Of a stretch of 64,000 nt of DNA, positions 10,218 through 61,908 are shown one piece after another (position 1 is the first letter of the stretch; each line of letters begins with the position of its first letter). Below the pieces are notes generated by a model. That model saw only the letters and a program-made list of their open reading frames with translations. It was not told the DNA's origin and ran no database searches. The position numbers and the translations under genes were made by a program. Origin of the DNA: a virus; IMG/VR virus record IMGVR_UViG_3300027976_000006, positions 64,001-128,000 of that record; one strand, written 5' to 3'.

Positions 10218-10235
10218 TTAAAATCCGGATTTTAA
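10218..10235. promoter_or_regulatory. 18-bp perfect palindrome TTAAAATCCGGATTTTAA (dispersed motif)
   Basis: Self-complementary, intergenic, related copies elsewhere. Confidence 0.75.
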
Positions 10236-11467: not shown

Positions 11468-11953
11468 ATGCACATAGATAAGTCGCACAACTACGATCAG
11501 AGGCAACAAAAACCTTTTCGGCACCAGCAAAAAGGTGGCGGGAAAGCGAGTTACGTTATGCCAGCTAAGACTATTCCTAAGATTTCCGTAGATTCGGCGT
11601 TTGCAGGGGCATGGCCCGTGTCCTTGCAAGTAAGCCGGCGTAGGCAGCAGATCATTCTGAGCGATATGAGTTCACACCCGTTGGCTGACCTTTGCTGCGG
11701 GCAATGGGAATGTGTTTTAAATCCGGAATTTAACTCTTTGTTTTTAAGCCCAGCAAAAGGTCAGAACAGGTTCTTACGCTACTGGGCAAAGAAGTTTGGT
11801 ATGCTGGGTCATACTCATTGCTTGGCGGTGCAACTGCCCAAGTCCCAAGTGATACTGTATCGCCCCGTGTGTGTGCAGGCAGATGGTGACCGTATTTGTT
11901 TTCAGTACTTAAACCGAGTTCCTAGTTTAACCAAGGTTGCCAATGCTGGATAA
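11468..11953 (+). CDS. hypothetical protein
   Basis: 161 aa ORF. Confidence 0.5.
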   Translation: MHIDKSHNYDQRQQKPFRHQQKGGGKASYVMPAKTIPKISVDSAFAGAWPVSLQVSRRRQQIILSDMSSHPLADLCCGQWECVLNPEFNSLFLSPAKGQNRFLRYWAKKFGMLGHTHCLAVQLPKSQVILYRPVCVQADGDRICFQYLNRVPSLTKVANAG

Positions 11954-13517
11954 TATTGCAAAACTGCGTTTGATGCTGTTAGGGCGAAAAACAGCTTCAG
12001 CAGCCACTGGTTTTGAGCAGATAGATTCCTTGGCCAAATTAGCCGTAGATGCCATAACTCGACAAAAAATTAATAAAATAAACAGCTACGCTTGCCAAAC
12101 TCCACAAACAAAACTTGCTGGGGCTACTTGGCGTACTCCTGAGAATCTTGCGAAGATTCTCAGACAGGCGTGGGGGTCGTCATCACCCGTTGTGGGCGAT
12201 ATGACCCAAGGTTTCAACAGAAACCAAGTTTTACAGGCAATTTCTGACCGTTTTGGGATGGGTAAGACCATAGCAAAAGGCTATCAAGATTTTACGGATA
12301 AGTTGAATTGGAGACCGCTACCTGAAAAGATCCAAAACAGCGTTTTGAAGACAATATTTGATCAGGCTACACCTAAATACATATTCAGAGGTACTACCCC
12401 AGGTAAAAACATAAATAACCCCTTTGCGGTCGACAACGCTGGGCTTGCAGCTAATTTCGTGCACGGTTCGCCTAGCCCTTTTATTTCAGATTACTATGCC
12501 AAACAATTTGGGGGTGGTAGGGCATTTCAAATGTTCAAGCCTACCAGAGCTCAAGGGTATATGCCCGACTTTCGCGCTCAGTACTATATTGATAAGAATA
12601 CTGGAACTTTAAAGGAAGATATAAAAAACCGTACATGGGCCAAGATATCTCCGGATTTTAAAACCAATATGAGCACGGAAGACTTCTTGCACCCAGGTAT
12701 GCTTAACAAGGAGGAATTAGCACATAAGGCTATTGGGCAAACTGTTTACGAAACACCAGTTATGCCGGCTAATAAGGTTTTTGGCACATTCTTGGCTAGA
12801 AGAAAATCGCAACAATATCATCCCGGAGTACAAAACTTTGACTACATGCCGTCTTTTCCGCGAGCTAGGGCATCCGATATACTTAAGTATACTGAGATAG
12901 CTAGCGTTCCAAACCATCTTAATAATAAGTTTGTTCAAATGAGTTTAGAAAAGCAAAGAAAGCTACCTACAGATTCATCAGGGAGGCTGCTCGCATCACC
13001 TATTCCTAAGCCACCTATTGCTGCGCCACCTATTGCCGCACCACCTATTGCCGCACCACCTATTCCTAAGCCACCTAATGCTGCGCCACCTATTGCTGCG
13101 CCACCTATTGCTGCTCATGCCCCAAATACGCTAGGGACTGCAGGGGACTACCCAGTACCACCTACCGGATTTTTAGCTAGTATGCAACAGTATCTACTTA
13201 GCTTCATGGGTGGTGGTGTTAAGCAAGGAAGTACAGCTTGGGTTAGAGCATTCCGAGCTGGAAAACTAAGTCCTGAATCTTTAGGGCGCATAGCGGCAAG
13301 GTTACCCGAAGGTACTAACCGTTTTGTTAGACCTCTTGGCAAAGGTATAAATATGCAGGCTGACCTAATGGTTGGCAACCTTGGCGGACAAGTTGGACAA
13401 GTTGTTCGTAAGCTGCCCATCCACGCAATTCCTCCAAAGGCGCTTGCTGCGGAAGCAGGCAACCTTCAACTGGCTCAGACTATTATTTCAAAGTTGTTGA
13501 AAGGGAGTAACAAATGA
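11937..13517 (+). CDS. putative virion polyprotein: ADP-ribosyltransferase-like domain, PPIAA repeats, kinase N-lobe-like stub
   Basis: YIFRG...HGSPSPFISDYYA...VYETP (R-S-E-like); LGKGINMQADL..VVRK; KTA/KLA/KQG motifs. Confidence 0.5.
   Translation: MPMLDNIAKLRLMLLGRKTASAATGFEQIDSLAKLAVDAITRQKINKINSYACQTPQTKLAGATWRTPENLAKILRQAWGSSSPVVGDMTQGFNRNQVLQAISDRFGMGKTIAKGYQDFTDKLNWRPLPEKIQNSVLKTIFDQATPKYIFRGTTPGKNINNPFAVDNAGLAANFVHGSPSPFISDYYAKQFGGGRAFQMFKPTRAQGYMPDFRAQYYIDKNTGTLKEDIKNRTWAKISPDFKTNMSTEDFLHPGMLNKEELAHKAIGQTVYETPVMPANKVFGTFLARRKSQQYHPGVQNFDYMPSFPRARASDILKYTEIASVPNHLNNKFVQMSLEKQRKLPTDSSGRLLASPIPKPPIAAPPIAAPPIAAPPIPKPPNAAPPIAAPPIAAHAPNTLGTAGDYPVPPTGFLASMQQYLLSFMGGGVKQGSTAWVRAFRAGKLSPESLGRIAARLPEGTNRFVRPLGKGINMQADLMVGNLGGQVGQVVRKLPIHAIPPKALAAEAGNLQLAQTIISKLLKGSNK
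13001..13116 (+). repeat. 15-bp coding repeat (PPIAA/PPIPK)
   Basis: CCACCTATTGCYGCR units visible. Confidence 0.85.
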
Positions 13518-13769
13518 TAAGACGTGCGACATCTAACAGTATGTCCAACACTTGGGGCACGGGTCTAAGGTATTCCTGTCGCACGCAGTTAAGAATGTGG
13601 TCAAAAGTATTTAGTGACAGCCACTCGGCGTCAAGAGCATCACATTACAGGTACAACTCGCTAAGTTGGAAATCCGATGTAGTTTTGTCAAAGTAACGAG
13701 CTACTGTTGTATTAACTGTTCGTAGTATTTAAACTAAGTTTGTTCGAACTTAACCTTAAGGAGTTTATC

Positions 13770-14558
13770 GTGCACAAACAATCAGGCATTCGTTCCGCTT
13801 TAGTTGGTACTGGTATTGGTGGCGTTCTGGGAGGGCTGCTTGGTCGATTTACTGGCTATAATGCTGGCAATAAAGAAGGGTACAGAAGTGGTAGTGAGTC
13901 CGGCTATAATGCTGGCAATAAAGAAGGGTACAGAAGTGGTAGTGAGTCCGGGGGTAGAGATACCTTGTTAAATCTACTTCGGGGTATGACTGATGTTGTA
14001 GATCAAGGGCGTAGAAGCGATGTAGATTTAAAACAATTGCTTATGCCACTAGAAGGGGGCGCTTCTCCGGCTATGTCCTCAGTAGCGGTTAAAACCGCAA
14101 AACTACGAAGAATGTTTGCCCGCATAGAAAAGAAAGCTGAAGAAAAACAATCAGGCATTCGTTCCGCTTTAGTTGGTACTGGTATTGGTGGCGTTCTGGG
14201 AGGGCTGCTTGGTCGATTTACTGGCTATAATGCTGGCAATAAAGAAGGGTACAGAAGTGGTAGTGAGTCCGGCTATAATGCTGGCAATAAAGAAGGGTAC
14301 AGAAGTGGTAGTGAGTCCGGGGGTAGAGATACCTTGTTAAATCTACTTCGGGGTATGACTGATGTTGTAGATCAAGGGCGTAGAAGCGATGTAGATTTAA
14401 AACAATTGCTTATGCCACTAGAAGGGGGCGCTTCTCCGGCTATGTCCTCAGTAGCGGTTAAAACCGCAAAACTACGAAGAATGTTTGCCCGCATAGAAAA
14501 ACAAGCTATTGCTAGTTTAAGCAGAAAGTTATTTGGGCCTGACAGATACGGCGCATAA
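13770..14558 (+). CDS. tandemly duplicated glycine-zipper head/ejection protein
   Basis: AAGGAG then GTG at 13770; two identical 123-aa units bounded by KQS/KTA/KKA/KQA. Confidence 0.7.
   Translation: MHKQSGIRSALVGTGIGGVLGGLLGRFTGYNAGNKEGYRSGSESGYNAGNKEGYRSGSESGGRDTLLNLLRGMTDVVDQGRRSDVDLKQLLMPLEGGASPAMSSVAVKTAKLRRMFARIEKKAEEKQSGIRSALVGTGIGGVLGGLLGRFTGYNAGNKEGYRSGSESGYNAGNKEGYRSGSESGGRDTLLNLLRGMTDVVDQGRRSDVDLKQLLMPLEGGASPAMSSVAVKTAKLRRMFARIEKQAIASLSRKLFGPDRYGA
13776..14500 (+). repeat. 369-bp-period direct duplication with nested 48-bp tandem repeat
   Basis: 13776-14131 matches 14145-14500; inner repeat 13854-13901/13902-13949. Confidence 0.95.
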
Positions 14559-14757: not shown

Positions 14758-17700
14758 ATGTACGAGTACACGGAAAAAGCGGGCGATGCTGCAGCTAAGA
14801 CTGAGAAGACAGCGGCATTAGAAGATACGAAACTCGGCATACCGATTAGTGCTGCAATCGCGGGTGGACTGGGTGGAGGGCTTTACGGAGGGCTTAAAGG
14901 TTTAATATCTCCCGGCGAATATGAAACGACAGACGAGGAAGGGCAGAAGGTTAAAAAAAAGCGTAATAGGCTAATAGCAGCTTTACAAGGTTCTTTGTAC
15001 TCTGGTGCTTTGGGGGCCGGAGCTGGGGCGTTAGGTGGGACGGCGTTTAATGCGGCCACTTCCGCCGACCCACAAAGAACTCCTTACACCGATGCTTACC
15101 GCAGTCTGCTTGTAGGTCAGGGCTTGGCTAACAATTATAAGTCGGCAGAGGCGGGACAAGACAGCAAACCTTCAGCAATGTCTTACATTCCCGGGATTGG
15201 CGGATTCCTTAGCGGAATAGCTAATCCTATGGTTCGCAAAAGTGATATAGGTATAGATTCCCTTGCAGGTATTCTGAAACCCATAGCGGCACCCATAGCG
15301 GCAGTGAATGAAGGCGTGGCTGGATTAATTGGGGGTATGGCAGGCGGCTTAGGTGGTGGCATGATTGGCCGTTTAGGGGGCAAGGCCCTTAAGACGCTTT
15401 TAAGTAAGCTTACAAAAAATTCGCTAAAGCCGACTGTGCTTACGAAGCTTAATCCAGGCGAATTCCGAAGTATACCGAGAGTGCCAACTGGTGCGGCGGA
15501 AGGGGTTCACAAATTAGTTGATAAATTTGACGATAATTCCGGTATCCTTGGGTTCCTTGGTGGAGCTTCTTTGGGTACACATGGCGGTGCCAGTGCTTAC
15601 CGCAGTCTGAAGGACTGGGCTATCAATTACGCGGATAAACTAAAACCTAAACTTGAGGATACGATTACAATGCCTGAGAAAATTGCAGAATGGGCTTCAG
15701 CTCCTAGCTTTTCGGCTAATGTGCCATTACCGCAGAAACTTAATCCGCTGGTTGCCGGTAGAAAATCATCAACAACCAAAGCGGACGCTAATGGAGTTCG
15801 AGAAGCACTTGCCAAGCTTGGTGCGTATGACAGCGCTTCACTTGCTGTTTCGGCAGCCGGGGATAGCAAAGGGTCTAAATATAAACAACAAGATGAAGAT
15901 CACGCAACTGGTGCAGCTGCGTTTGATTCGCTTGATAAGTATCGAAGGATGACTAAGAAAGCAGGCATGACTCAGTTCCAGACTAAATTCTTTGAACGCT
16001 TTATTTTAGAAGGTAAAAGTGCACAACAGCTACAAGCTGTGGTTAAGCAAGCAGGAGAACAGTTTGGATCTAAGATAGGTAAAGAATTAGCACGTGGGTT
16101 TAAAAAGCTTGCTTCTGCGGGGTTAGCCGGTGCCCGCTGGTTTGCTCGGGCTACCGGCAGCCCGACCGGTGCGGCTGCGCAGCGCCCAAGCCAGCAAGGA
16201 CTCCCTTCAGCTGGCGGGTTTGGCTTTTCTCAACTTCCGGCAGCGATGACTAATTTTGGTAAGCGGGTTGGAGAAGCATTCCCCGGATCAAAAGACTACA
16301 TGGGCATGGGGGGTGCTGCGTTTGATGGTGTTAAAGGAGCGTTACCTGGAATGGGCCAACAGCTTCAACAAGCAGCAACCAAAGGAGTAGAAGGCTGGGT
16401 TAAGCAACCCGGTGTCTTTACTAACCCTGCGGAAGTATGGAGGCGTAGAAACCAAGCTCAAGGTGTTCAGAAGACTTTAGGGGATATAACGACTGGCATG
16501 GGTAAGCTTATGGGCAAGCAGTCTAGTGAAAAGCGAGGGGCTAACTGGGCTGCGCTTGGGAAAGGGGCATTAAAATATATGGGAATGGGTGCGGGAAAAC
16601 CCGGGGCAGAAGTAGCAAATACTTTTAGGCATGCTATGGGCACGGCGGGAACGACTGCAGGAGGTGCAGCTTTAAAAGTATTGAAAAATCCTGTTCTGCA
16701 AGGGCGAGCAGGTACTGGGGCTGTGACTGGTGCAATAAACCCTATGACTGGTTTACTTTCCCAAGATGAAAATAGAAGCTGGGGTGACTATCTTACTAGT
16801 GCGGGTCTTAGCGGCTTAGCTGGTGCTGGTGCAGGTGTTTTAGGGGGCAAAGGCACGCAAAAGATGATGGGGCGTATGCAAGCAGGCGGAAACTTAGGTT
16901 TTATGGGTGATATGGCAGCAGATTTAGCTGGGTATGACACAGGTGGTCGGTTAGGGCAAATTGGATTTTTAGGCGGAGCTGCATTGCCCGCAAAGGTGCC
17001 TCAATGGTTAGGGCAAAAGGCGACACAGATGGGAGGTGGCCGTGTCGGCACGAATATTCCCGGAAGGGCAGGAGACACTGCAAAACTTATGAATAGTGTG
17101 GATTATTTAAGCAAGGGGCAGAACTGGGTACTCGGTAAAGGTAGGCAAGGTGCAGGCTTAGGCTATCAAGCAGCTAAAGCTAATCCGTTGATGGCAGCTG
17201 GTCTAGGTACTGCGGGACTTGGCGGTACCTACGGGTTACACCAACTTGGTAGAGCGGCAGACGCAGCTGAGGGCATGCGTGGTGATGCGAATGCACAGAT
17301 GAGTGCTCTTAGGCAGCAAGTTGCTGGCATGGGTGGCATGGGTGGCATGGGTCAGTTCTTTAATGAAAATAAGCATTGGTTAATGCCTGCGTTGTTAGCT
17401 GGTGGGGGTGCTTTGGCCGGGGGTGCAATGGGTGGTGGTGGTGGTGCTGCACTGGGTGGCCTCGGCTTGCCAGCCCTTTATGCGATGCATCAAAGTGGTA
17501 TGTTTGGCGGCGGAGGCGGCGGAGGCGGCGGAGGCGGCGGAGGCGGAGGCGTTGATCTTTATCGACCTGAGTCAAACGGGGGCCGTGACTTAATACAACT
17601 TCAGTTCCAAAATGCACAAGAAGATACAAATAGACAAATTGTCGCTCGGACAAGAGATCCGAGAATAGCTGTACCTAAAACAGCCAGTGCTAATGCAGTA

Positions 17701-17829: not shown

Positions 17830-17868
17830 CCTCTACAGAGCACGATCTGGGGGAATACCAAGCTGTGT

Positions 17869-18159
17869 GTTGAGTAAGTAGCTGTGTAGGTCGCAAGGCG
17901 GATTGGAAAGATCCGACTCATGCCTAACAGCTAGGTGCATTTATGCTAAAGAATAAATGTACAGAACGCTGCTGGGACAAACCCTTGCGGACAGTGTTTC
18001 GGGCAGTTGGAATGGTGGCAGTTTTTCGAGGGTCCTCGGCTCCCAGGCTTCCTTTCACCCTCCCACCGTACAACTTGAGACCGCTGGCACCGCGCAGAGT
18101 GTCACGTTTCTACGAGGAAAGGCGGAAACGCTAGACCGGGTGCGACTGCCTAGCTCGAC
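17869..18159 (+). ncRNA. candidate large structured ncRNA of unknown class
   Basis: At least 7 helices with G-U pairs favouring the + strand, terminal stem, predicted pseudoknot. Confidence 0.6.
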
Positions 18160-18177
18160 TTAAATTCTGGATTTTAA
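18160..18177. promoter_or_regulatory. dispersed 18-bp palindrome copy
   Basis: TTAAATTCTGGATTTTAA fits TTAAAWTCYRGAWTTTAA. Confidence 0.7.
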
Positions 18178-18190
18178 AAGGTGGTTAAGA

Positions 18191-29602: not shown

Positions 29603-30031
29603 ATGTCCGTACAAGATCAACTAGACCAAGCTGTGCTTGCACTAACGACGCATTACAAGGAATACACAGCAGATGGAAAATTAACTTACAAAGAAGTGCT
29701 TTCGTTGCTATGCAACGGGGCTGCTACCCTTATTCGAGTAGTGGAGATATTTGGGGGAGGTAGCCGTGAAGACAACAAAAAGTTAGTGTTAGGCGGGCTT
29801 AGCACATTTTACGATAATGTAATTGCCCCAATAGACATTGTTGGCATCCCGAATATCATTGAGCCTGCGGTAGACGCGTCCATAAAATCGCTATTACTTG
29901 TTACGGTGGAGGGGGCTGCTGATTCATTATTCAATGTATTTGAAAAGATGGGTTGGTTGCACGCAGCTACACCACAAGCTCTGCGGTTAATGGGCGCAAC
30001 CGCTAAAGCGCAACCTGTTATGCTTTTTTAA
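29603..30031 (+). CDS. hypothetical protein
   Basis: 142 aa, AAGGAG RBS. Confidence 0.7.
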   Translation: MSVQDQLDQAVLALTTHYKEYTADGKLTYKEVLSLLCNGAATLIRVVEIFGGGSREDNKKLVLGGLSTFYDNVIAPIDIVGIPNIIEPAVDASIKSLLLVTVEGAADSLFNVFEKMGWLHAATPQALRLMGATAKAQPVMLF

Positions 30032-30045
30032 ATTCTAGATTTTAA
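30028..30045. promoter_or_regulatory. dispersed 18-bp palindrome copy
   Basis: TTAAATTCTAGATTTTAA overlapping a stop codon. Confidence 0.7.
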
Positions 30046-32077: not shown

Positions 32078-35000
32078 TTGGCTGGAGTTTTACAAATGCT
32101 TCCGTTTTCTTCTAATTTGTTTAATCCCGACGCTATGTCCTTGTTGAGTAACGTGCCACAACCGTTGCCAGAAGCTCCCGTGGTTCCATCGTTTCCAGCG
32201 GTTCCGTCGTTTCACGAATTTCATGATACTAATAAAGTTAGATCGCTCATTTACGACAAAGTGCTGAATGCGGCGCAGCAGGTGCAGCCTATCTCCAACG
32301 ATCGGCACACGCTGAGGTTATCTGATATAAATTATCGAGATGGTGACAAGTTTAGTAAGCAAGATCAAAAATCTTCCATTCTCAATGGGAGGACTCAAGG
32401 GCGTAGGCTAGAAGGAACTTGGGAGCTCTTGGATAATGCGACACAGCAAGTAATAGACTCCAAGAAGTCAGTGCTGGCGACTGTTCCGCACTTGACTGAT
32501 CGTGGCACGTTTATAAATAACGGTACCGAGTATATTTTACGAAATCAACAGCGGTTATTGCCAGGAGTTTATACCCGGGCAAGGAACAATGGCGAGATTG
32601 AATCGCATGTTAATGTTATGGCAGGAAAAGGCGTTTCACACCGTTATTTTTTAGACCCAGAAAAAGGTAGATTTAAACTCAAGGTAGGCCAAGCATCGGT
32701 AGGATTAACTCCTTTGTTGAAAGCTATGGGGGTTACCTCCGAGCAAGCCAAAGAAGCGTGGGGCACGGATCTATTTGCTGCCAACTATAACTCAGATGAC
32801 GCTTCCGACTATACACGGCTTAAAGGTATGTTTCTTTCGTCCAAAGAATTACAAGGGCCGGAAGATCAACAGAGACAAGCTTTGCTTGCTAAATTTTCTA
32901 AAATGGAAATGGACCCCGAAGTAACACGGCGCACGCTGGGAAAGCCTTATGCAAATATGTCATTGGACGCTGTGCTAGACATCACGAAGAAATTAATAAG
33001 TGTTAACAAAAATGAATCAGACCCTGATGACAGGGACGCGCTTCATTTTCAGCAGTTTGTCGGGCCAGAGGATTTGTTTTCAGAGCGAATCGCACGAGAT
33101 AAAGGGCAGGTACGCCGTAATTTACTATGGAAAATGTCAGGAAAAGGTAATTTAAGCTCAATGCCTTCGTCCGCATTAGACAAGCAGTTGAAAAGTGCAT
33201 TGCTTAGTAGTGGGTTAGGGCAGGCAATTGAAGAAATCAACCCGACAGACCTTTACGAAAAAACAATGTCGGTTACCCGCGTGGGCGAGGGCGGTATTTC
33301 TTCCATGGATTCTATCCCCAAAGAATCTCGAAATGTGCAATCAAGTATGCTGGGCTATATAGACCCTGTCCGTACTCCGGAATCTGGGCGTGTGGGTGTA
33401 GACACTTATTTGGCAAGAGGTTCTCGAAAAGGAAGCGATGGAAAGCTATACGCGCAGTTTCGAGATTTACGAACTGGTGAAATGGTGTATAAAACTCCAC
33501 AAGATGTGGCAAACTTAACTGTTGGATTTCCAGGAAGTCTAGAAGGGCCAGATAAGCGGGTGCCGGCAATGCGAGACGGCAAAATGCTTCATGTTCCTAA
33601 GGATAGTATTGATCTAGAATTACCTAATATGGAAGAGGCATTCAACCCTCTTTCTAATGTTATTCCGATGAAAAGCCAGGTAAAAGGGCAAAGATTAGTA
33701 ATGGCTTCTCGTATGACTACGCAAGCTTTACCTTTAGTATCGCCCGAAGCTCCTTTAGTACAGTCGGCAGTTCCCGGTACAAACGGGAAGCAAAGCTATG
33801 AAGAGTTGTATTCGCCAGGGATGGGAGCTTTGCGGGCGACACAAGCCGGTAAAGTTATGGCGGTTACTGACGAAGGGATTAAAGTGCGTAATGCGGACGG
33901 TACCGAGGAAACGCATGAGCTTTATAATAACTTCCCTTTTAATCGAAAAACTTTCTTTCAGCAGACTTCGGTAGTTAAGCCAGGCGACACTATCCAGCCA
34001 AATCAATTGTTGGCCAGTTCTAATTACACAGACAAGGTAGGAACGATGGCTTTAGGGGTAAACGCACGTACTGCTTATATCCCGTGGCAGGGCAAGAATT
34101 TTGAAGACGCGATTGTTATTTCAGATAGTTTTGCAAAGAGAACGGCTTCGTCGCATATGTACCAGCACGAGCTGGAGATTGACGACAAAACACAATTAGG
34201 TAAAAGGCAATTTATCCAAGCATTCCCGGCGACATTTAAAAAAGAAACATTAGCGACTATAGATGATCAAGGAATGGTTAAGCCAGGTACGGTAGTTAAT
34301 TTTGGTGATCCTTTGGTTCTTGGTATTACGCAAAAAGAAAATGCATATAACAAGGTGCACAAACAAGGGCAAAAGGGATTTAATAACGCAGCCGTACTTT
34401 GGGAACATCACGATAGTGGCGTTGTCACTGATGTGGTTATGGGTAAAAAAGGTCCGGTTGTTGTTGTTAAAGCTGAATCTCCAACGCAAGTCGGCGATAA
34501 ACTGTCCGGTCGCTACGGGGACAAAGGCGTCATTGCTGATATCATTCACGATAATGAAATGCCACAAGGGGCGGACGGTCAACCTTTTGAAGTGTTGCTT
34601 AATCCTCTTGGGATAATTAGTCGAACTAATCCTGCGCAAATGTCTGAATTGTTTTTAGGAAAAATAGCGGCTAAGCGGGGAACGCCGATTAAAGTAGATG
34701 ATTTTGATACTAAAAAAGACATGAGCCAATGGGTGTTGCAGGAATTAGCCAAAGAAGGTTTGTCTGACTTAGAAGATATTGTAGACCCATCTAAAGATCA
34801 AAAAATTAACAATGTGGCAACGGGTAGTCGTTTTTTTATGAAATTGCACCACACTGCTGAATCTAAAGGGCAGGGTAGAAGTGGCGGAGCTTACACTACG
34901 GAAGATGCCCCAGCTAAAGGCGGTACGGAAGGTTCTAAGCGCATAGGTTTGATGGATGCCAACGCATTGCTTTCTCACGGGGCTACGGACACGTTACAAG

Positions 35001-36562
35001 ACATTTTCACAATACGCAGGCAAAAAAATGACCAGTATTGGATGCAATTTATGGCTGGTTACGATCCAAAAATCACTACAGTTCCTTTTGCATATCAAAA
35101 ATTTGTGAATCAGCTGCGCTCGGCTGGCGTTAATGTGGTCAAGCAGGGAACGCAGACTCAGATTATGGCGATGACGGATAAGGACATTGACAGTTTAGCT
35201 GGAGACCGTGAGTTGACTAACGCAGATGGCGTAGAGTGGGGTAACCAACTAAAAGAGATCAACGGCGGACTATTCGACAAGGCTAAGACTGGAGGGCATG
35301 GCGGGACACGCTGGTCATTCATCAAACTTCATGAACCTTTGCCCAATCCTGTGATGGAAGAACCTATTAGGTCCATGCTTGGACTGACAAAGAAAAAGTT
35401 TGAAGGTGTAATAGCGGGTACAGAATCTTTAGACAAATACGGCAGCGGTACGGCAGCGCTGCAAAAAGCATTAGAAAATTTTAATGTAGATGCGGAAATT
35501 TCTAAAGCACGCGCAGTTATTTCCGCAGGTAGAGGCTCGCAGCGAGATGAAGCAATCCGTAAACTTAGTTATGCTAAAGCGGTGCAGAAGCTTGGGTTAC
35601 AGCCTAAGGACTATATGCTGACCAAGGTACCGGTTCTTCCTCCAATGTTTCGTCCTGTTAGTCTGATGAGTAATGGTATGCCTTTGGTTAACGATGCCAA
35701 CCACCTGTACAAAGAGTTGTTTGAGGCTAACCAGAATTTCAAGAGAATGCAGCAAGAAGTCGGAGAAGATGCTTCTGGGACAGAACGCCTCTCTACCTAC
35801 CAAGCGTTTAAAGCGGTGACTGGGCTGGGGGATCCTATTAGTGCAAAAAGCCAAGAAAAGAATGTTCGTGGTGCATTAAAAAATGTATTTGGAGAAAGCC
35901 CTAAGTTCGGGGTGGTGCAGCGTAAGTTGATTTCTTCCACCGTTGACAATGTAGGGCGTGCTGTTATTACCCCAAACCCATCTTTGGATATGGACTCTGT
36001 TGGTTTACCGGAGGATAAAGCATTTAAGGTTTACGAAAAGTTCGTCACCAGAAGATTGGTGCGACAAGGTATGTCGATGCTGCAGGCTCGTACCCAACTA
36101 GAAGACAAGACGCCAGTAGCCCGTAAGTTACTGGTTGAAGAAATGGAGCATAGGCCAGTGTATATTAGTCGTGCCCCTGTGTTGCATAAATTTGGGATTA
36201 TGGCAATGAAGCCAAGATTGACTAAAGGAAATACATTGCAGGTAAGCCCATTAATTGTAAAAGGGTTTGGAGCTGACTTTGACGGGGACACTATGAATTA
36301 TCATGTGCCCAGCACAGAAAAAGCTAGAAAAGAGGCTTTAGATCGTTTACTTCCCAGCCGTAACCTTTTTAGTATAGCTGACATGAAGTCGGTAATGCAC
36401 GCTCCTGCTAACGAATACATTGGCGGGTTGTTTATGGGGACAGACCCATCACGTAAATCCACGCGGCCTGTCCGGATTTTTCAAAACATACAGGATGCGA
36501 AGCGAGCACACGAAAGTGGAACTATTTCGGTCAATGACCCTGTCCGAATTTTAAATGGTTAG
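32078..36562 (+). CDS. DNA-directed RNA polymerase: beta fused to N-terminal half of beta'
   Basis: beta: GTFINNGTE, TPESGRVG, GDKLSGRYGDKG, LNPLG, MKLHH; beta': GGLFD, VPVLPPMFRP, RAPVLH, GADFDGD (36269-36289). Confidence 0.95.
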   Translation: MAGVLQMLPFSSNLFNPDAMSLLSNVPQPLPEAPVVPSFPAVPSFHEFHDTNKVRSLIYDKVLNAAQQVQPISNDRHTLRLSDINYRDGDKFSKQDQKSSILNGRTQGRRLEGTWELLDNATQQVIDSKKSVLATVPHLTDRGTFINNGTEYILRNQQRLLPGVYTRARNNGEIESHVNVMAGKGVSHRYFLDPEKGRFKLKVGQASVGLTPLLKAMGVTSEQAKEAWGTDLFAANYNSDDASDYTRLKGMFLSSKELQGPEDQQRQALLAKFSKMEMDPEVTRRTLGKPYANMSLDAVLDITKKLISVNKNESDPDDRDALHFQQFVGPEDLFSERIARDKGQVRRNLLWKMSGKGNLSSMPSSALDKQLKSALLSSGLGQAIEEINPTDLYEKTMSVTRVGEGGISSMDSIPKESRNVQSSMLGYIDPVRTPESGRVGVDTYLARGSRKGSDGKLYAQFRDLRTGEMVYKTPQDVANLTVGFPGSLEGPDKRVPAMRDGKMLHVPKDSIDLELPNMEEAFNPLSNVIPMKSQVKGQRLVMASRMTTQALPLVSPEAPLVQSAVPGTNGKQSYEELYSPGMGALRATQAGKVMAVTDEGIKVRNADGTEETHELYNNFPFNRKTFFQQTSVVKPGDTIQPNQLLASSNYTDKVGTMALGVNARTAYIPWQGKNFEDAIVISDSFAKRTASSHMYQHELEIDDKTQLGKRQFIQAFPATFKKETLATIDDQGMVKPGTVVNFGDPLVLGITQKENAYNKVHKQGQKGFNNAAVLWEHHDSGVVTDVVMGKKGPVVVVKAESPTQVGDKLSGRYGDKGVIADIIHDNEMPQGADGQPFEVLLNPLGIISRTNPAQMSELFLGKIAAKRGTPIKVDDFDTKKDMSQWVLQELAKEGLSDLEDIVDPSKDQKINNVATGSRFFMKLHHTAESKGQGRSGGAYTTEDAPAKGGTEGSKRIGLMDANALLSHGATDTLQDIFTIRRQKNDQYWMQFMAGYDPKITTVPFAYQKFVNQLRSAGVNVVKQGTQTQIMAMTDKDIDSLAGDRELTNADGVEWGNQLKEINGGLFDKAKTGGHGGTRWSFIKLHEPLPNPVMEEPIRSMLGLTKKKFEGVIAGTESLDKYGSGTAALQKALENFNVDAEISKARAVISAGRGSQRDEAIRKLSYAKAVQKLGLQPKDYMLTKVPVLPPMFRPVSLMSNGMPLVNDANHLYKELFEANQNFKRMQQEVGEDASGTERLSTYQAFKAVTGLGDPISAKSQEKNVRGALKNVFGESPKFGVVQRKLISSTVDNVGRAVITPNPSLDMDSVGLPEDKAFKVYEKFVTRRLVRQGMSMLQARTQLEDKTPVARKLLVEEMEHRPVYISRAPVLHKFGIMAMKPRLTKGNTLQVSPLIVKGFGADFDGDTMNYHVPSTEKARKEALDRLLPSRNLFSIADMKSVMHAPANEYIGGLFMGTDPSRKSTRPVRIFQNIQDAKRAHESGTISVNDPVRILNG

Positions 36563-37627: not shown

Positions 37628-38203
37628 ATGGACAATTCTTTGCGCTCTTCCGACATATATTACAGAGATAGGCAACCAATAGTTGTGCCTAAGCCTGTGC
37701 CGATGCCGACTTATCGGCAATCTTCTAACGAAAGTTTTTCCAATAATAAATATTATGCGGAGATGTCAACACCGGCTGGCACAGACGACATAGTTAAAAT
37801 GCAACTGCGACCAAAAAAAGAATCGGAATTGGAGTTAGCGGATAACTGGGACGGTATAGCAACTTTTCAGAATGAATTTAAAGAAGGTGCCACTTCTATC
37901 GTGGTAAAATCAACTGAAGCTGTAATCCTGCAGTTACAAGTTGCTGTGGATATGGCAGTCGGGCGTAACGAGTTGACGAGAGAGCAGGTAGACTCTATAA
38001 CTTTTGTAGCAACAGCTCGTGCCCCGATTTTTGCGGTACCAAAAGTGCCTCCGATTAAAGAAACAACTGTTTCTCCCAAGAGCACACCCGAGGCAGCCGA
38101 TATCCTAAACGCCCCGACTAAACCGGGCAATAAAAAGGCAAAGCGGGGCATTACCCTGAAAGACATTGCAGCTGTGTTTGATGTCGACGATAGCGACGCT
38201 TAA
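37628..38203 (+). CDS. hypothetical protein
   Basis: 191 aa, coupled to previous gene. Confidence 0.6.
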   Translation: MDNSLRSSDIYYRDRQPIVVPKPVPMPTYRQSSNESFSNNKYYAEMSTPAGTDDIVKMQLRPKKESELELADNWDGIATFQNEFKEGATSIVVKSTEAVILQLQVAVDMAVGRNELTREQVDSITFVATARAPIFAVPKVPPIKETTVSPKSTPEAADILNAPTKPGNKKAKRGITLKDIAAVFDVDDSDA

Positions 38204-38217
38204 AATCCAGATTTTAA
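38200..38217. promoter_or_regulatory. dispersed 18-bp palindrome copy upstream of beta'(C)
   Basis: TTAAAATCCAGATTTTAA. Confidence 0.72.
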
Positions 38218-38244: not shown

Positions 38245-41200
38245 ATGTTGAACACAACCGTTGGGCAATTGTTGATTAATGATGTACTCCCCGAAGAGAT
38301 GAGAGACTCGCACCGTGTGTTAGATAAGAAGGGGTTGCAATCTTTATTACAACAAGTGGCGCAACAATACCCAGAACGCTATCGAGATATTTCTTTTCAG
38401 CTAAGCCAGCTAGGTCAAAGCATGGCGCAGCAGCAGGGTGGTATGTCGTTTGGTCTGCGACATCTGCAAGTAAGTAAAGCGGCTATGGCATCTCGGCAGA
38501 AAGTTAAAGTTTCACTTGCTAATATACTAGCGGACGACACATTGACGGACCGCCAACGAAATGACCAGATTATTCTTGCTGTTGGCAAGGAAAGTCCCGA
38601 GCAACAAAAGCAAGTTCTGGCAGAAGCATTAAAAGACAAAAACCCGCTTGGGCTGCAGGTGATGTCGGGAACCCGCGGTAAGTCGATGAACCTAACTAGT
38701 CTGCTGGGTTCGGATATGTTGTATTCTGACCAGCGTGACGAAGTGATTCCGATTCCTGTATTGCACAGTTATAGCGAGGGGTTGTCACCTGCGGAATATT
38801 GGGCTGGAACTTACGGGGCGCGCAAAGGGATTATGGCAACTAAGTTTGCCACACAAGAAGCTGGTTTTTTTAACAAGCAGCTAAACCAAACTAGTCATCG
38901 TCTTGTGGTTACGGGAGAGGATGCCGAGGAGGACAAAGACGCACCTATTCGTGGCTTGGTGGTAGACACCGAAGATGCGGATAACGAAGGTGCTTTATTG
39001 GCCCGTGACGCAGGTCCTTACGCACGCAATACCCCACTTACCCCGAAAATACTAAACCATTTACAACGGCTAGGGCACCCTAGAATTTTGGTACGCTCCC
39101 CGCTAGTTGGTGGTTCTCCCGAGGGTGGTGTTTATTCTAGAGATGTAGGTATTAGGGAAACAGGAAGGTTGCCGGGTATTGGGGAGCAAGTTGGGTTGCA
39201 GGCTGCACACGCTCTAAGTGAACCGATCAGCCAAGGGCAACTATCTGCAAAGCATTCTGGTGGGGTTGCGGGGCAAGAAAAAGCTGTAAGCGGGTTTCAA
39301 TATTTAAACCAATTAGTGCAGGTTCCTAAGAAAATGCAAGGCGGGGCAGCCCATTCCCTTACAGATGGCACGGTGCAGCGGATTGAGGCAGCTCCAGCGG
39401 GTGGTAGCTATGTGACCATCGGGGATAAAAGACATTATGTAGGAGTAGGGTATGAGCTTAAAGTTAAAAAAGGAGACGAAGTAGAAGCTGGTGATGTAAT
39501 TAGTACGGGGATTCCTAACCCCGCAACTATTACAGAGCATAAAGGAATTGGGGAAGGTCGGCGATATTTCGTTAACGAATTTCGTAAGGCTATGGGTGAC
39601 AGCGGAATGTTCGGACATCGGCGTAATGTTGAAGTGTTGGCAAGGGGGCTTATCAACCACGTAAGGTTGACGGAAGAAACTGACGATAACGTTCCTGATG
39701 ATATTGTACCTTATTCAACGCTTGAGCACACTTATAAGCCGCGGGCAGACTATCAGCGATTAACGCCCAAGCGTGCGTTAGGTCAATATCTTGAACGACC
39801 TGTGCTGCATTACACCATAGGCACCAAGATTCAACCCTCGATGCTTAAGAATTTTGAAGAATTTAAAGTTAATGAAATTCCAGTGCACAAGAACCCTCCT
39901 CCATTTGTGCCACAGATGGTACGTGGGTTGTATCAAATGCAGCACGACCCCGATTGGATGACACAAATGTATGGGTCTGGGCTGAAGAAAAGTTTTTTAG
40001 ACTCGGTTACGCATGGTGCAGTTAGCGAAGAGCGAGGTACAAGCTTTGTGCCGAGTTTGGCCTTGGGGCTTAATTTTGGTGAAGGCAGTGATCGTGCCGT
40101 AATAAAGCCGAAGTCTGGGGCAACTCCTCCTTTTTTTGGTGGCAGTTTTACTCCGGGTCAAACTAAATTTGCAGCAGATACTCCGAATGTCTCTGCCCCG
40201 CCTTCTGCTTCTAAACCGCCTGCTGTTTCTACCCCACCTAGAACTTTAGCTCCGGGCACAAACATTATGCCGACAGCACCGACACCTGTAAAAGCACCTA
40301 CACCTGCTCCGACATACTCGAACTCTAACGCAAATCAATTTAGTAATTTAATGCATAGTAATTCTCCCTTTGCTCAACAAACCGGGCAGGCGTTGAATCA
40401 AATGAATCCATTACACGCAATGATGATGTTGGGGGGGATGGCTAATAATAATAATAATAATAATATGTCTAGTAATATAATGAATGGGTTTGGCGGGCAA
40501 AATAATGGTGGAATGTTTAATATGTTTAATGGGGGGCAAAATAATAACGGGCAAAATAGCGGAGGAATGTTCAATAATATGTTTAATATGCCCAGCTCGT
40601 ACGATTCGGAATCTAACATGCCTGCTGAGCCTGTAACTGAAAGCCCATATGTCTCGGCTCAAGGTCCAGTAAGTAATACTGCCTCTGGTGCTGCGTATGA
40701 CACCGCAGCAAAGGGGGTAGGTGCGGGATATTCAGCAGTAGCAAATAAATTTTCAAGTCCTCCTATCTCATCTAATATTATGCCTCCGCCGTTGCCTAGA
40801 ACACCTCCTCCGATACCCGCTAAGCTTCCTCCGATACCCGGAATGACTCCTCCTCCGATACCAGGAATGACTCCTCTTCCGCTGCCTGGGGTTAAACCTC
40901 TGGCTGGTATGCTCAGTAAAGCCACTTCAATAGGTGGTACAGGTTTAAAGTTAGTAAGTAAAGCGGCACTGCCACTATCTGTGGCTCTGGACACAATAAA
41001 CGTCGGGCAAGACATATACAACAAAGGTTGGGATAATACAACTAACGACGCAGCACAAAAATGGCGAGATATACTTTCGGCCAAGGATGGGCTACATACC
41101 TTGTATCAAGCTCCATTACAAGTTCTAAACCCTGTGGCTAATGCACAATTAATTGCTGGCGGGGCAACACAGACTGCCCAGATGGTAGGAGAAAAAGCAC

Positions 41201-41865
41201 AAGAAGGGCTAACCCATGCGTATGACAAAGTAACGGGTACGGATACTCGTTCTCGTAATTTTGCAGAGGACAAGACACAAGTTAAAAACATGGAGTTAGA
41301 AAATCAAAGAGATTTAGAAGGACAAAGAGCACTAAATAAGCCGAATCCAAATCTACCCCCAGATAGGTTAGCTTTAAATACGCAAGAAAATGCCCGTCTT
41401 GATGCTAAAATACAAGATTCTAAAACGAGGCAAGGAAATACGGCGGATGAAACTGCAAACTGGAGGCTAGGCCAGCAAAATTGGTTTGGCAGTGGTGGCC
41501 ACAAATTTAGGGATGCTATGCAAAATTCGATTACTAATTCAGCTGCCGAATTGCAGGGTTTAAATAACGGAGGCACACTAGATGCAGGGCAGCAGGCTAG
41601 GAAAGAACAGTTAGAAAACGGACAAGCACAGCGTAAACAAATGATCGGTACTTACGATCGGGAGGGCGGGGCATCTGGTAAAGGTTTGTTTAGTACAGAT
41701 ATGCGCAACCGGGTTAGCAGTCTTAAGGAAAATATTGTGCAGGTCGGTTCACAACTTAGAGACCCCAACCTTCCTCCGGACCAAAAAGCAAAATTAGAGG
41801 CACAATTAAAAAATAATAATGAAATGTTAGAAGAATATCGAGGATGGGCAGAAAGTTCTAAATAA
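38245..41865 (+). CDS. RNA polymerase beta' C-terminal half (aa 1-~625) plus ~560 aa non-RNAP tail
   Basis: TTVGQ, SGTRG, EGLSPAEY..GARKG bridge helix, GEQVG..ALSEPISQ..KHSGG trigger loop, NVEVLAR. Confidence 0.92.
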   Translation: MLNTTVGQLLINDVLPEEMRDSHRVLDKKGLQSLLQQVAQQYPERYRDISFQLSQLGQSMAQQQGGMSFGLRHLQVSKAAMASRQKVKVSLANILADDTLTDRQRNDQIILAVGKESPEQQKQVLAEALKDKNPLGLQVMSGTRGKSMNLTSLLGSDMLYSDQRDEVIPIPVLHSYSEGLSPAEYWAGTYGARKGIMATKFATQEAGFFNKQLNQTSHRLVVTGEDAEEDKDAPIRGLVVDTEDADNEGALLARDAGPYARNTPLTPKILNHLQRLGHPRILVRSPLVGGSPEGGVYSRDVGIRETGRLPGIGEQVGLQAAHALSEPISQGQLSAKHSGGVAGQEKAVSGFQYLNQLVQVPKKMQGGAAHSLTDGTVQRIEAAPAGGSYVTIGDKRHYVGVGYELKVKKGDEVEAGDVISTGIPNPATITEHKGIGEGRRYFVNEFRKAMGDSGMFGHRRNVEVLARGLINHVRLTEETDDNVPDDIVPYSTLEHTYKPRADYQRLTPKRALGQYLERPVLHYTIGTKIQPSMLKNFEEFKVNEIPVHKNPPPFVPQMVRGLYQMQHDPDWMTQMYGSGLKKSFLDSVTHGAVSEERGTSFVPSLALGLNFGEGSDRAVIKPKSGATPPFFGGSFTPGQTKFAADTPNVSAPPSASKPPAVSTPPRTLAPGTNIMPTAPTPVKAPTPAPTYSNSNANQFSNLMHSNSPFAQQTGQALNQMNPLHAMMMLGGMANNNNNNNMSSNIMNGFGGQNNGGMFNMFNGGQNNNGQNSGGMFNNMFNMPSSYDSESNMPAEPVTESPYVSAQGPVSNTASGAAYDTAAKGVGAGYSAVANKFSSPPISSNIMPPPLPRTPPPIPAKLPPIPGMTPPPIPGMTPLPLPGVKPLAGMLSKATSIGGTGLKLVSKAALPLSVALDTINVGQDIYNKGWDNTTNDAAQKWRDILSAKDGLHTLYQAPLQVLNPVANAQLIAGGATQTAQMVGEKAQEGLTHAYDKVTGTDTRSRNFAEDKTQVKNMELENQRDLEGQRALNKPNPNLPPDRLALNTQENARLDAKIQDSKTRQGNTADETANWRLGQQNWFGSGGHKFRDAMQNSITNSAAELQGLNNGGTLDAGQQARKEQLENGQAQRKQMIGTYDREGGASGKGLFSTDMRNRVSSLKENIVQVGSQLRDPNLPPDQKAKLEAQLKNNNEMLEEYRGWAESSK

Positions 41866-53769: not shown

Positions 53770-53807
53770 CTAAGTTAGCCCTGGACTGCTGGGGCTAACT
53801 TAGTTTT
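53770..53807 (+). terminator. terminator after MCP
   Basis: 12-bp stem CTAAGTTAGCCC/GGGCTAACTTAG then TTTT. Confidence 0.75.
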
Positions 53808-53833
53808 AAAATCCAGAATTGGAGTAATGAATT

Positions 53834-61890: not shown

Positions 61891-61908
61891 TTAAATTCCG
61901 TATTTTAA
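61891..61908. promoter_or_regulatory. dispersed 18-bp palindrome copy (1 mismatch)
   Basis: TTAAATTCCGTATTTTAA. Confidence 0.6.

Follow-up and report, generated by a model that had tools for sequence, protein, structure and literature searches.

A predicted structured RNA with two junctions and a loop-loop pseudoknot follows a glycine-rich gene in uncultivated large phages

ROOL RNAs are roughly 580 nucleotides (nt) and GOLLD RNAs roughly 800 nt in length. The phi29-type pRNA of small podoviruses with protein-primed DNA measures 120-174 nt and uses a 4-nt inter-molecular loop pairing. To our knowledge, bacterial and phage RNAs of ~300 nt that combine several junctions with a conserved inter-domain pseudoknot are rare, and most of those characterised are ribozymes, ribonucleoprotein scaffolds or self-assembling particles. 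Self-assembly of ROOL and GOLLD via inter-molecular loop contacts is described in a preprint (bioRxiv 10.1101/2024.12.08.627333), and a 2023 computational screen of IMG/VR gives 10,006 unnamed candidate structured RNAs (PMC10690425). Here we describe an RNA predicted at positions 17869-18159 on the + strand of a 64,000-nt stretch of phage DNA (the window), which comprises bases 64001-128000 of a 156,975-bp IMG/VR virus record with an estimated completeness of 76%. We consider it highly probable that this segment encodes a member of an unclassified family of structured non-coding RNA (ncRNA) of uncultivated large phages; it is probably a stable RNA derived from a 3' untranslated region (3' UTR). 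No description of the RNA was found in the literature, and it may be among the unnamed candidates of that screen (PMC10690425).

The RNA occupies a 361-nt gap between the stop of the gene P0001 (17829) and the start of P0002 (18191). All long open reading frames (ORFs) of the window lie on the + strand. A preliminary description, made from the letters of the window, had proposed a pseudoknotted ncRNA of ~290 nt with the boundaries 17869/18159 on the + strand, possibly a new large phage RNA or ribozyme. The complementary segments that it listed are all present, and size, boundaries and strand were right as judged by covariation among homologs. Two of the checks that it had suggested were carried out: cmscan against Rfam found no family, and the collected homologs show strong compensatory change.

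Homologs were collected from viral and metagenome contigs (L numbers). The 172 kb contig L032 carries a P0001 homolog whose protein is barely alignable. The DNA just after this homolog matches window positions 17860-18179 with 82% nt identity over 325 nt. Toward both L032 and L034 the element shows 82% nt identity in all six tblastx frames, compared to 41-61% for the flanking protein. A scan with a core 19-mer led to L034, the third viral contig, and to five metagenome contigs, and further members were found via P0001 protein homologs. Five other metagenome contigs matched by the 19-mer (L104, L106, L109, L110, L112) share just the 19-mer and a few flanking bases and were discarded as chance. 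Gaps of 352 and 274 nt come after two distant P0001 homologs (E 5e-14 and 3e-17), and CM R1, a trimmed 303-position covariance model (CM) from which the pseudoknot was left out, aligned to both gaps over the whole model length. CM R1 scores were 89 bits (E 3e-30) for L126 and 59 bits (E 2e-19) for L127, divergent members with 32-44% identity to the window copy; the window itself scored 298 bits at 17865-18162. The final set comprised 15 homologs (13 close, 2 divergent) or, with the window copy, 16 sequences. The window copy and the 13 close homologs are distinct sequences and are referred to as the 14 close sequences. Members are ~260-320 nt long and reside on contigs of 71-179 kb from uncultivated large phages. 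A search of the whole 157-kb record indicated that the RNA is single-copy, with no paralogs.

The element was not matched by blastn in the phage collection. A pattern scan of prokaryote genome contigs gave two matches in Nitrospirae metagenome-assembled genomes, neither of which was matched by the CM, and both were regarded as chance. Other anchors and probes were tried and dropped. The window ORF 11937-13517 has no relatives, and an SNF2 helicase led just to the two viral contigs already known. The 15-mer GACCGGGTGCGACTG gave 70 matches, which are chance apart from the known contigs. With the loose pattern TGGAA..CAGGTCTCCTT, none of 113 new loci among the matches listed fits the profile, and true members were possibly missed.

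What sets the RNA apart from chance is the comparison with the 15 homologs; thermodynamic evidence by itself is weak. In the alignment of 16 sequences, 97.6% of the cells of 88 pairs (nested helices, pseudoknot and helix P7b) hold standard pairs, against 33-43% when the partners were slid. Changes on both sides occur in 47 of the 88 pairs. The slid controls gave 6-12 such pairs and the shuffled ones 9.3±2.4, and none of 500 shuffles reached 47. Further support is provided by the 14 close sequences, for which RNAalifold predicted 96 pairs with 98.6% of the cells paired (37-47% slid). Nine of these pairs show compensatory change, as against 0-3 slid, and this number was reached in 0 of 500 shuffles. 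G-U pairs make up 207 of 1379 pair cells, and pairing falls from 97.6% on the + strand to 83.2% if the minus strand is assumed. Therefore the RNA is read from the + strand, and the earlier remark that G-U pairs favour this strand was correct. Compensatory substitutions beyond the controls and a G-U strand asymmetry, the marks of a conserved structured ncRNA, were both found. The existence, strand, boundaries and fold of the predicted RNA rest on this comparison, whereas its transcript, transcript ends and function we infer. The putative new family of structured phage RNA appears real and well supported by its homologs.

The predicted fold contains two junctions (Table 1). As shown by comparison of the homologs, P1 closes a junction of P2/P3, P4, P5 and P6, and P6 closes a second one formed by P7/P7b, P8 and P9. 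A predicted pseudoknot between the loops of P5 and P7 ties the two junction domains together, and the core common to all lineages comprises P1-P7 and this pseudoknot. Although the pseudoknot is outside the CM, it is paired in all 16 sequences. Its strands change together, from the window form to CUGAGG/CCUCAG in L034, CUGGAGG/CCUCCAG in L127 and CUGGGGG/CCCCCAG in L126. The P5 loop that holds the 5' strand has 20 nt in the window (23 alignment columns). The divergent members differ likewise in P1 (GUGAGC/GCUCAC in L126, GGGCGAG/CUUGCCC in L127), in P5 (AGGUGUUA/UGACACCU in L126) and in P7 (AUUGCAG/CUGCAAU in L127). In P6, double changes were found in L118 (G-to-A with C-to-U), L126 (GGCAACUG/CAGUUGCC) and L127 (GGUAAUUG/CAAUUACC). 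P7b takes the forms AGGGU/GCCCU, CAGGGUG/CGCCCUG, GAGGGU/ACCCUC, GGAAGU/ACUUCC and GGAAG/CUUCC. A helix AAAGGG/UCCUUU that RNAalifold proposed fails in four sequences and was dropped for P7b.

Table 1. Features of the locus in window coordinates. Percentages of cells paired and both-side changes refer to the 16-sequence alignment.
Feature	Position	Strand	Description
Whole RNA	17869..18159	+	P1 5' strand to P1 3' strand; CM R1 match, 15 homologs
P1	17869-75 (GUUGAGU) with 18153-59 (GCUCGAC)	+	7 bp, 98% of cells paired, both-side changes in 3 pairs
P2-P3 arm	17880..17932	+	internal loop with near-invariant GCAAGG
P2	17880-91 with 17922-32	+	both-side changes in 8/11 pairs
P3	17899-902 with 17912-15	+	both-side changes in 3/4 pairs
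P4 variable hairpin	17935-46 with 17951-62	+	both-side changes in 11/12 pairs
P5 hairpin	17964-71 (GAACGCUG) with 17992-99 (CAGUGUUU)	+	both-side changes in 6/8 pairs
Pseudoknot	CUGGGA 17972-77 (P5 loop) with UCCCAG 18041-46 (P7 loop)	+	100% of cells paired, 6-7 bp
P6 long-range	18001-09 (GGGCAGUUG) with 18143-51 (CGACUGCCU)	+	100% paired, both-side changes in 3 pairs; closes second junction
P7 arm	18012..18069	+	loop holds pseudoknot 3' strand 18041-46 and conserved UCCUUUC
P7	AUGGUGG 18012-18 with CCACCGU 18063-69	+	both-side changes in 4/7 pairs
P7b	GAGGGU 18028-33 with ACCCUC 18057-62	+	5-7 contiguous bp in 16/16, sequences differing
P8 hairpin	outer 18076-81 with 18106-11, inner 18085-90 with 18099-104	+	98-99% paired, both-side changes in 4 pairs
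P9 hairpin	18112-24 with 18129-41	+	GAAA tetraloop, GCG-GAAA-CGC 18122-31; invariant in 14 sequences
Palindrome TTAAATTCTGGATTTTAA	18160..18177	.	directly after RNA end at 18159
Upstream gene P0001	14758..17829	+	1023 aa, Gly-rich; RNA always after its stop codon
Downstream gene P0002	18191..18730	+	179 aa, phrog_3704; not conserved beside RNA in relatives

Most helices named in the preliminary description fit this fold. Its GTTGAG/CTCGAC, TAGCTGT/ACAGCTA, CGGAT/ATCCG, GTGCATTTAT/ATAAATGTAC and TGGCAC/GTGTCA correspond to P1, P2, P3, P4 and P8, respectively, all supported by covariation; P2b, P5, P6 and P7b were missing from the list. A pseudoknot does exist as claimed, but it is the covariation-supported loop-loop helix CTGGGA/TCCCAG, which had been listed as an ordinary helix, instead of the pairing AGTTG..ATGGTGG/CCACCGT.CAACT. 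Of the latter, ATGGTGG/CCACCGT indeed pairs, as the nested helix P7. Its other half, AGTTG/CAACT, had to be given up: AGTTG sits in P6 (18001-09 with 18143-51), a helix with covariation in L118, L126 and L127. The long-range option GTCGCA/TGCGAC was dropped as well, its TGCGAC being part of the 3' strand of P6. The third pairing given up, ACCCTTG/CGAGGGT, forms 7 bp in the window alone, and in 16 of 16 sequences the GGG run pairs with a CCC before the P7 3' strand, giving P7b. The proposed GGCG-GAAA-CGCT is the tip of P9. Because P9 is invariant in its 14 carriers it provides no covariation signal, so this tip is neither supported nor contradicted.

P8 is absent from L127, and P9 is absent from L127 and replaced by a longer insert in L126. 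Since L127 lacks both arms, P8 and P9 are dispensable. The L127 copy (L127:7186-7445, 260 nt) is a natural minimal variant in which a short hairpin GAGCG…CGCUC takes the place of P8/P9. Several nucleotides are unpaired yet invariant in all three lineages, among them AGU (J1/2), GGAA (J6/7), UA.AAC (J7/8) and, within the P7 loop, UCUCCU.

High nt conservation could also reflect a conserved DNA element (origin, packaging or protein-binding site) or a short gene, and two ORFs of 63 and 68 codons (17943-18134 and 17957-18163) overlap the RNA in the window. The palindrome that abuts the RNA may moreover bind protein. Nonetheless, substitutions that keep the pairing, with 97.6% of cells paired on the + strand and 83.2% on the minus strand, speak against an element acting as DNA. 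The cumulative GC skew climbs steadily across the region and shows no reversal there. Neither a conserved ORF nor a three-base periodicity was found: the longest open frame differs from homolog to homolog, and variable columns are spread evenly over the codon phases (36/36/34). Indels are not multiples of three, and whole arms are gained or lost, as in the 30-nt insert of L126 and the two missing arms of L127. P0004 has no family match. A DNA element or short gene in place of an RNA is therefore very improbable.

The constant genomic partner of the RNA is the upstream Gly-rich gene. In 15 of 15 relatives the stop of the upstream ORF lies at most 12 nt before the model start, which is itself 4 nt before P1; in L127 the last base of the upstream ORF overlaps the model start. 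The spacer between stop and P1 is 39 nt in the window, and across members the RNA begins 3-39 nt past the P0001-type stop, the distance in the homologs being at most ~16 nt. This position, together with the lack of a sigma-70-type promoter on the + strand near the RNA, suggests a 3'-UTR origin.

On the downstream side, the next gene begins 15-38 nt past the RNA model end in every relative. Such a constant spacing would suit a cis-regulatory leader (a riboswitch-like aptamer) for the downstream cluster, with the P1 3' strand, a U-rich tract and the Shine-Dalgarno sequence as expression platform. The next gene invariably opens a cluster of enzymes that modify small molecules or glycans (PhyH, sulfotransferase, polysaccharide deacetylase, methyltransferase, glycosyltransferase). 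U-rich sequence follows the P1 3' strand, and L127 adds an AGGAGG-ATG arrangement. Kissing-loop architecture is also known from cobalamin riboswitches. However, the first downstream gene comes from at least five families; PhyH, polysaccharide deacetylase, sulfotransferase, an unknown 174-aa protein and P0002 were all seen in this place. A generic gene-start palindrome of the phage separates RNA and gene in the main family. The neighbour that stays constant is the upstream gene, whose stop abuts the RNA. No terminator-like hairpin was found on the + strand, and ~300 nt is large for an aptamer. We consider a leader unlikely, and a stable 3'-UTR-derived RNA is more likely than a mere terminator or a leader of the variable downstream gene. 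In L127, UUUU comes directly after the P1 3' strand and leads into the AGGAGG-N6-ATG of a sulfotransferase gene. A stimulator of stop-codon readthrough (a structure ~11 nt past the stop) was also considered and rejected, as in close members translation would meet another in-frame stop 6 codons further on (GAG-UAA in J1/2).

According to the favoured reading of a 3'-UTR-derived stable RNA, the RNA would be made as part of the Gly-rich gene's transcript, namely its 3' UTR, and a ribosome terminating on that gene would halt shortly before P1. P1 and then the U-rich tract might mark or protect the 3' end of the RNA, and the folded RNA may bind a phage or host protein or self-associate via its loop-loop helix. 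The complex conserved fold and the invariant unpaired nucleotides favour a trans-acting or protein-binding stable RNA. Ribozymes are common among large ncRNAs of complex fold, and the same features would be compatible with catalysis by a new ribozyme class, self-cleaving or active in another way, that would process a polycistronic transcript between the Gly-rich gene and the downstream cluster. This proposal fits the size and conservation of the tertiary architecture (two junctions plus the pseudoknot between the domains), the unpaired nucleotides invariant in three lineages and the location exactly at a gene boundary. No Rfam ribozyme family shows similarity at E <= 10, however, and protein binding or tertiary contacts would conserve unpaired nucleotides just as well; we regard catalysis as quite unlikely. 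We see a small chance that the RNA belongs to a new functional class, either as a boundary-processing ribozyme or as a self-assembling RNA with an inter-molecular P5-loop/P7-loop helix, as in pRNA, ROOL and GOLLD. If self-assembly were true, phages with their own RNA polymerase would use a multimeric particle in infection or virion assembly.

Several observations weigh against the reading of the segment as a conserved, 3'-UTR-derived structured RNA. The minimum free energy (MFE) of the segment with its flanks is near that of shuffles (z = -0.50 on the + strand, -0.17 on the minus strand). With exact boundaries it just marginally beats them (z = -1.92), an equally stable fold being reached by 7 of 200 shuffles. 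In favour of the RNA, the window copy folded with these boundaries (MFE -108 kcal/mol) reproduces P1-P9. Most of the both-side changes stem from the two divergent lineages, so independent events are fewer than cells. The alignment used, A7, follows the structure of the CM, and this gives the nested helices an advantage; free of this fit are the changes within the 14 close sequences, the unmodelled pseudoknot and P7b. The phages that carry the close members are nearly identical, with 96-97% amino acid identity between SNF2 helicases of the relatives, and therefore the 91% nt identity of the close members is not exceptional by itself. At one locus with a distant P0001 homolog (L124/L125) the gap has 112 nt and the RNA is not there, hence it is not essential to this gene arrangement. 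Finally, neither a sigma-70-type promoter nor a canonical terminator was found on the + strand near the RNA. The phage may use its own polymerase and its own signals.

Directly after the RNA follows the palindrome, and the earlier statement that the RNA ends exactly there holds, with the RNA end at 18159 and the palindrome at 18160-18177. At up to 3 mismatches the window contains 13 copies of it, compared to 0.17 expected. The consensus is TTAAA(A/T)TC(Y)(R)GA(A/T)TTTAA, and copies include 10218-10235, 18160-18177, 30028-30045, 38200-38217, 53806-53823 and 61891-61908. Most copies are located ~25-35 nt ahead of start codons, and some overlap the preceding stop. The copy after the RNA is kept in the 14 close members and not in L126 and L127. 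The palindrome is a generic gene-start motif of the phage and probably lies outside the RNA core. It may serve the phage's own RNA polymerase as promoter or operator, or form a hairpin in the 5' UTR.

Such a polymerase is encoded in the window. The phage has a multisubunit RNA polymerase, of which two ORFs were identified: a beta/beta'-N fusion (32078-36562) and another subunit (38245-41865). The first ORF (1494 aa) carries Rpb2 (beta) and Rpb1 (beta' N-terminal) domains on a single chain. The second shows weak RNA polymerase beta matches, with 26-28% identity to Salmonella phage Arash and Vibrio phages D181, D148 and D69. A ribonucleotide reductase is also encoded, and family matches are absent for most other phage proteins.

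P0001 has no Pfam, PHROG or NCBIfam match. The protein is fast-evolving: its homologs are 41-61% identical to the window protein and range from 766 to 1251 aa. The SNF2 helicase next to P0001 homologs is 96-97% identical among L032, L113, L114, L117 and L119. Host-interaction or low-complexity cargo proteins typically evolve in this way. A stretch of GGC/GGA codons (17505-17553) close to the C-terminus of P0001 specifies 15 consecutive glycines, and this tract may be prone to slippage. Upstream of P0001, the ORF 13740-14558 encodes a Gly-zipper protein in which the tandem copies 13890-14153 and 14259-14507 both match L032 225-500, which indicates a putative internal duplication of ~369 bp. P0002 matches phrog_3704, labelled ferredoxin, with E 3e-9. 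Relatives of P0002 (55-64% identity) occur in 30 viral loci (L002-L031) in varied neighbourhoods, mostly on far smaller contigs. P0002 was also tried as an anchor for homologs, and none of these 30 loci has the element upstream. P0002 behaves like a mobile neighbour or auxiliary gene and not like a partner of the RNA. Further downstream, P0003 (19010-20140, 376 aa) is of low complexity, has an RGG/RG-rich tail (…GRGRRGGRGG…GRRGR) and has homologs in L032 and L034. RGG/RG-type motifs are often linked to RNA binding, and P0003 is a possible candidate protein partner of the RNA, judging from its sequence.

The RNA is also a marker of a little-studied group of large aquatic phages, most of whose genes have no match to a known family. 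It offers clean boundaries, a minimal core defined by the deletion in L127 and a fixed partner in the fast-evolving Gly-rich gene, and is therefore ready for direct experiment.

Comparison with known RNA families was carried out with the 4227 covariance models of Rfam 15, using the window, L034, L126 and L127 as representatives. At the gathering threshold, the whole window gave no match. At E <= 10, the four representatives reached just chance-level scores of 10-20 bits, compared to gathering thresholds of 33-85. The preliminary description had been unable to assign the RNA to tmRNA, RNase P or a group I intron, and rightly so: ARAGORN found no tRNA or tmRNA in the window, and Rfam 15 was negative. 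For a group I intron, RF00028 was unmatched, the upstream ORF has its own stop and the downstream gene families vary. Bacterial RNase P was rejected as well, with RF00010/RF00011 unmatched and P9 missing in L127. We take GAGGAAAG and ACAGAAC to resemble CR-I and CR-V, yet their order is reversed and they lie in the local hairpins P9 and P5. The phi29-type pRNA model (RF00044) was unmatched, and ROOL, GOLLD, OLE, raiA and HEARO gave no match at E <= 10 with the four representatives. A segment CAGGUCUCCU / CAGGTCTCCT, read as its reverse complement, resembles part of the B12 box. A cobalamin riboswitch on the minus strand was ruled out by the absence of an Rfam match and by the G-U strand asymmetry.

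Four groups of described RNAs invite comparison by architecture or position. The start at or near the stop of one gene, with linkage kept across lineages, recalls 3'-UTR-derived small RNAs (sRNAs) and TnpB reRNA/omega-RNA. Typical 3'-UTR sRNAs are far less complex than an RNA of ~290 nt with two junctions. In contrast to TnpB reRNA/omega-RNA, the upstream protein has neither a nuclease domain nor another known domain, and neither transposon ends nor a guide-like variable 3' segment are present at the locus. With the cobalamin riboswitch (RF00174) the RNA shares a multi-helix junction, a peripheral kissing-loop pseudoknot with a distant hairpin loop and a position directly upstream of a gene. 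It has an Rfam match on neither strand, however, and the downstream genes are unrelated to cobalamin. Like the phi29-type pRNA (RF00044), it is a structured RNA encoded by a phage, and covariation between complementary loops preserves a loop-loop helix. The phage described here is at least 157 kb, however, and the helix has 6-7 bp and may well be intramolecular. From ROOL (RF03087) and GOLLD (RF01998) the RNA differs in its length of ~290 nt, in its place in the predicted 3' UTR of one protein gene and in not lying near tRNAs. It is like them in being an orphan, large, multi-junction, phage-borne RNA with covarying helices that was found by comparative genomics; ROOL and GOLLD often occur in phages or prophages. 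By analogy, the P5-P7 loop-loop helix could in principle act between molecules here as well.

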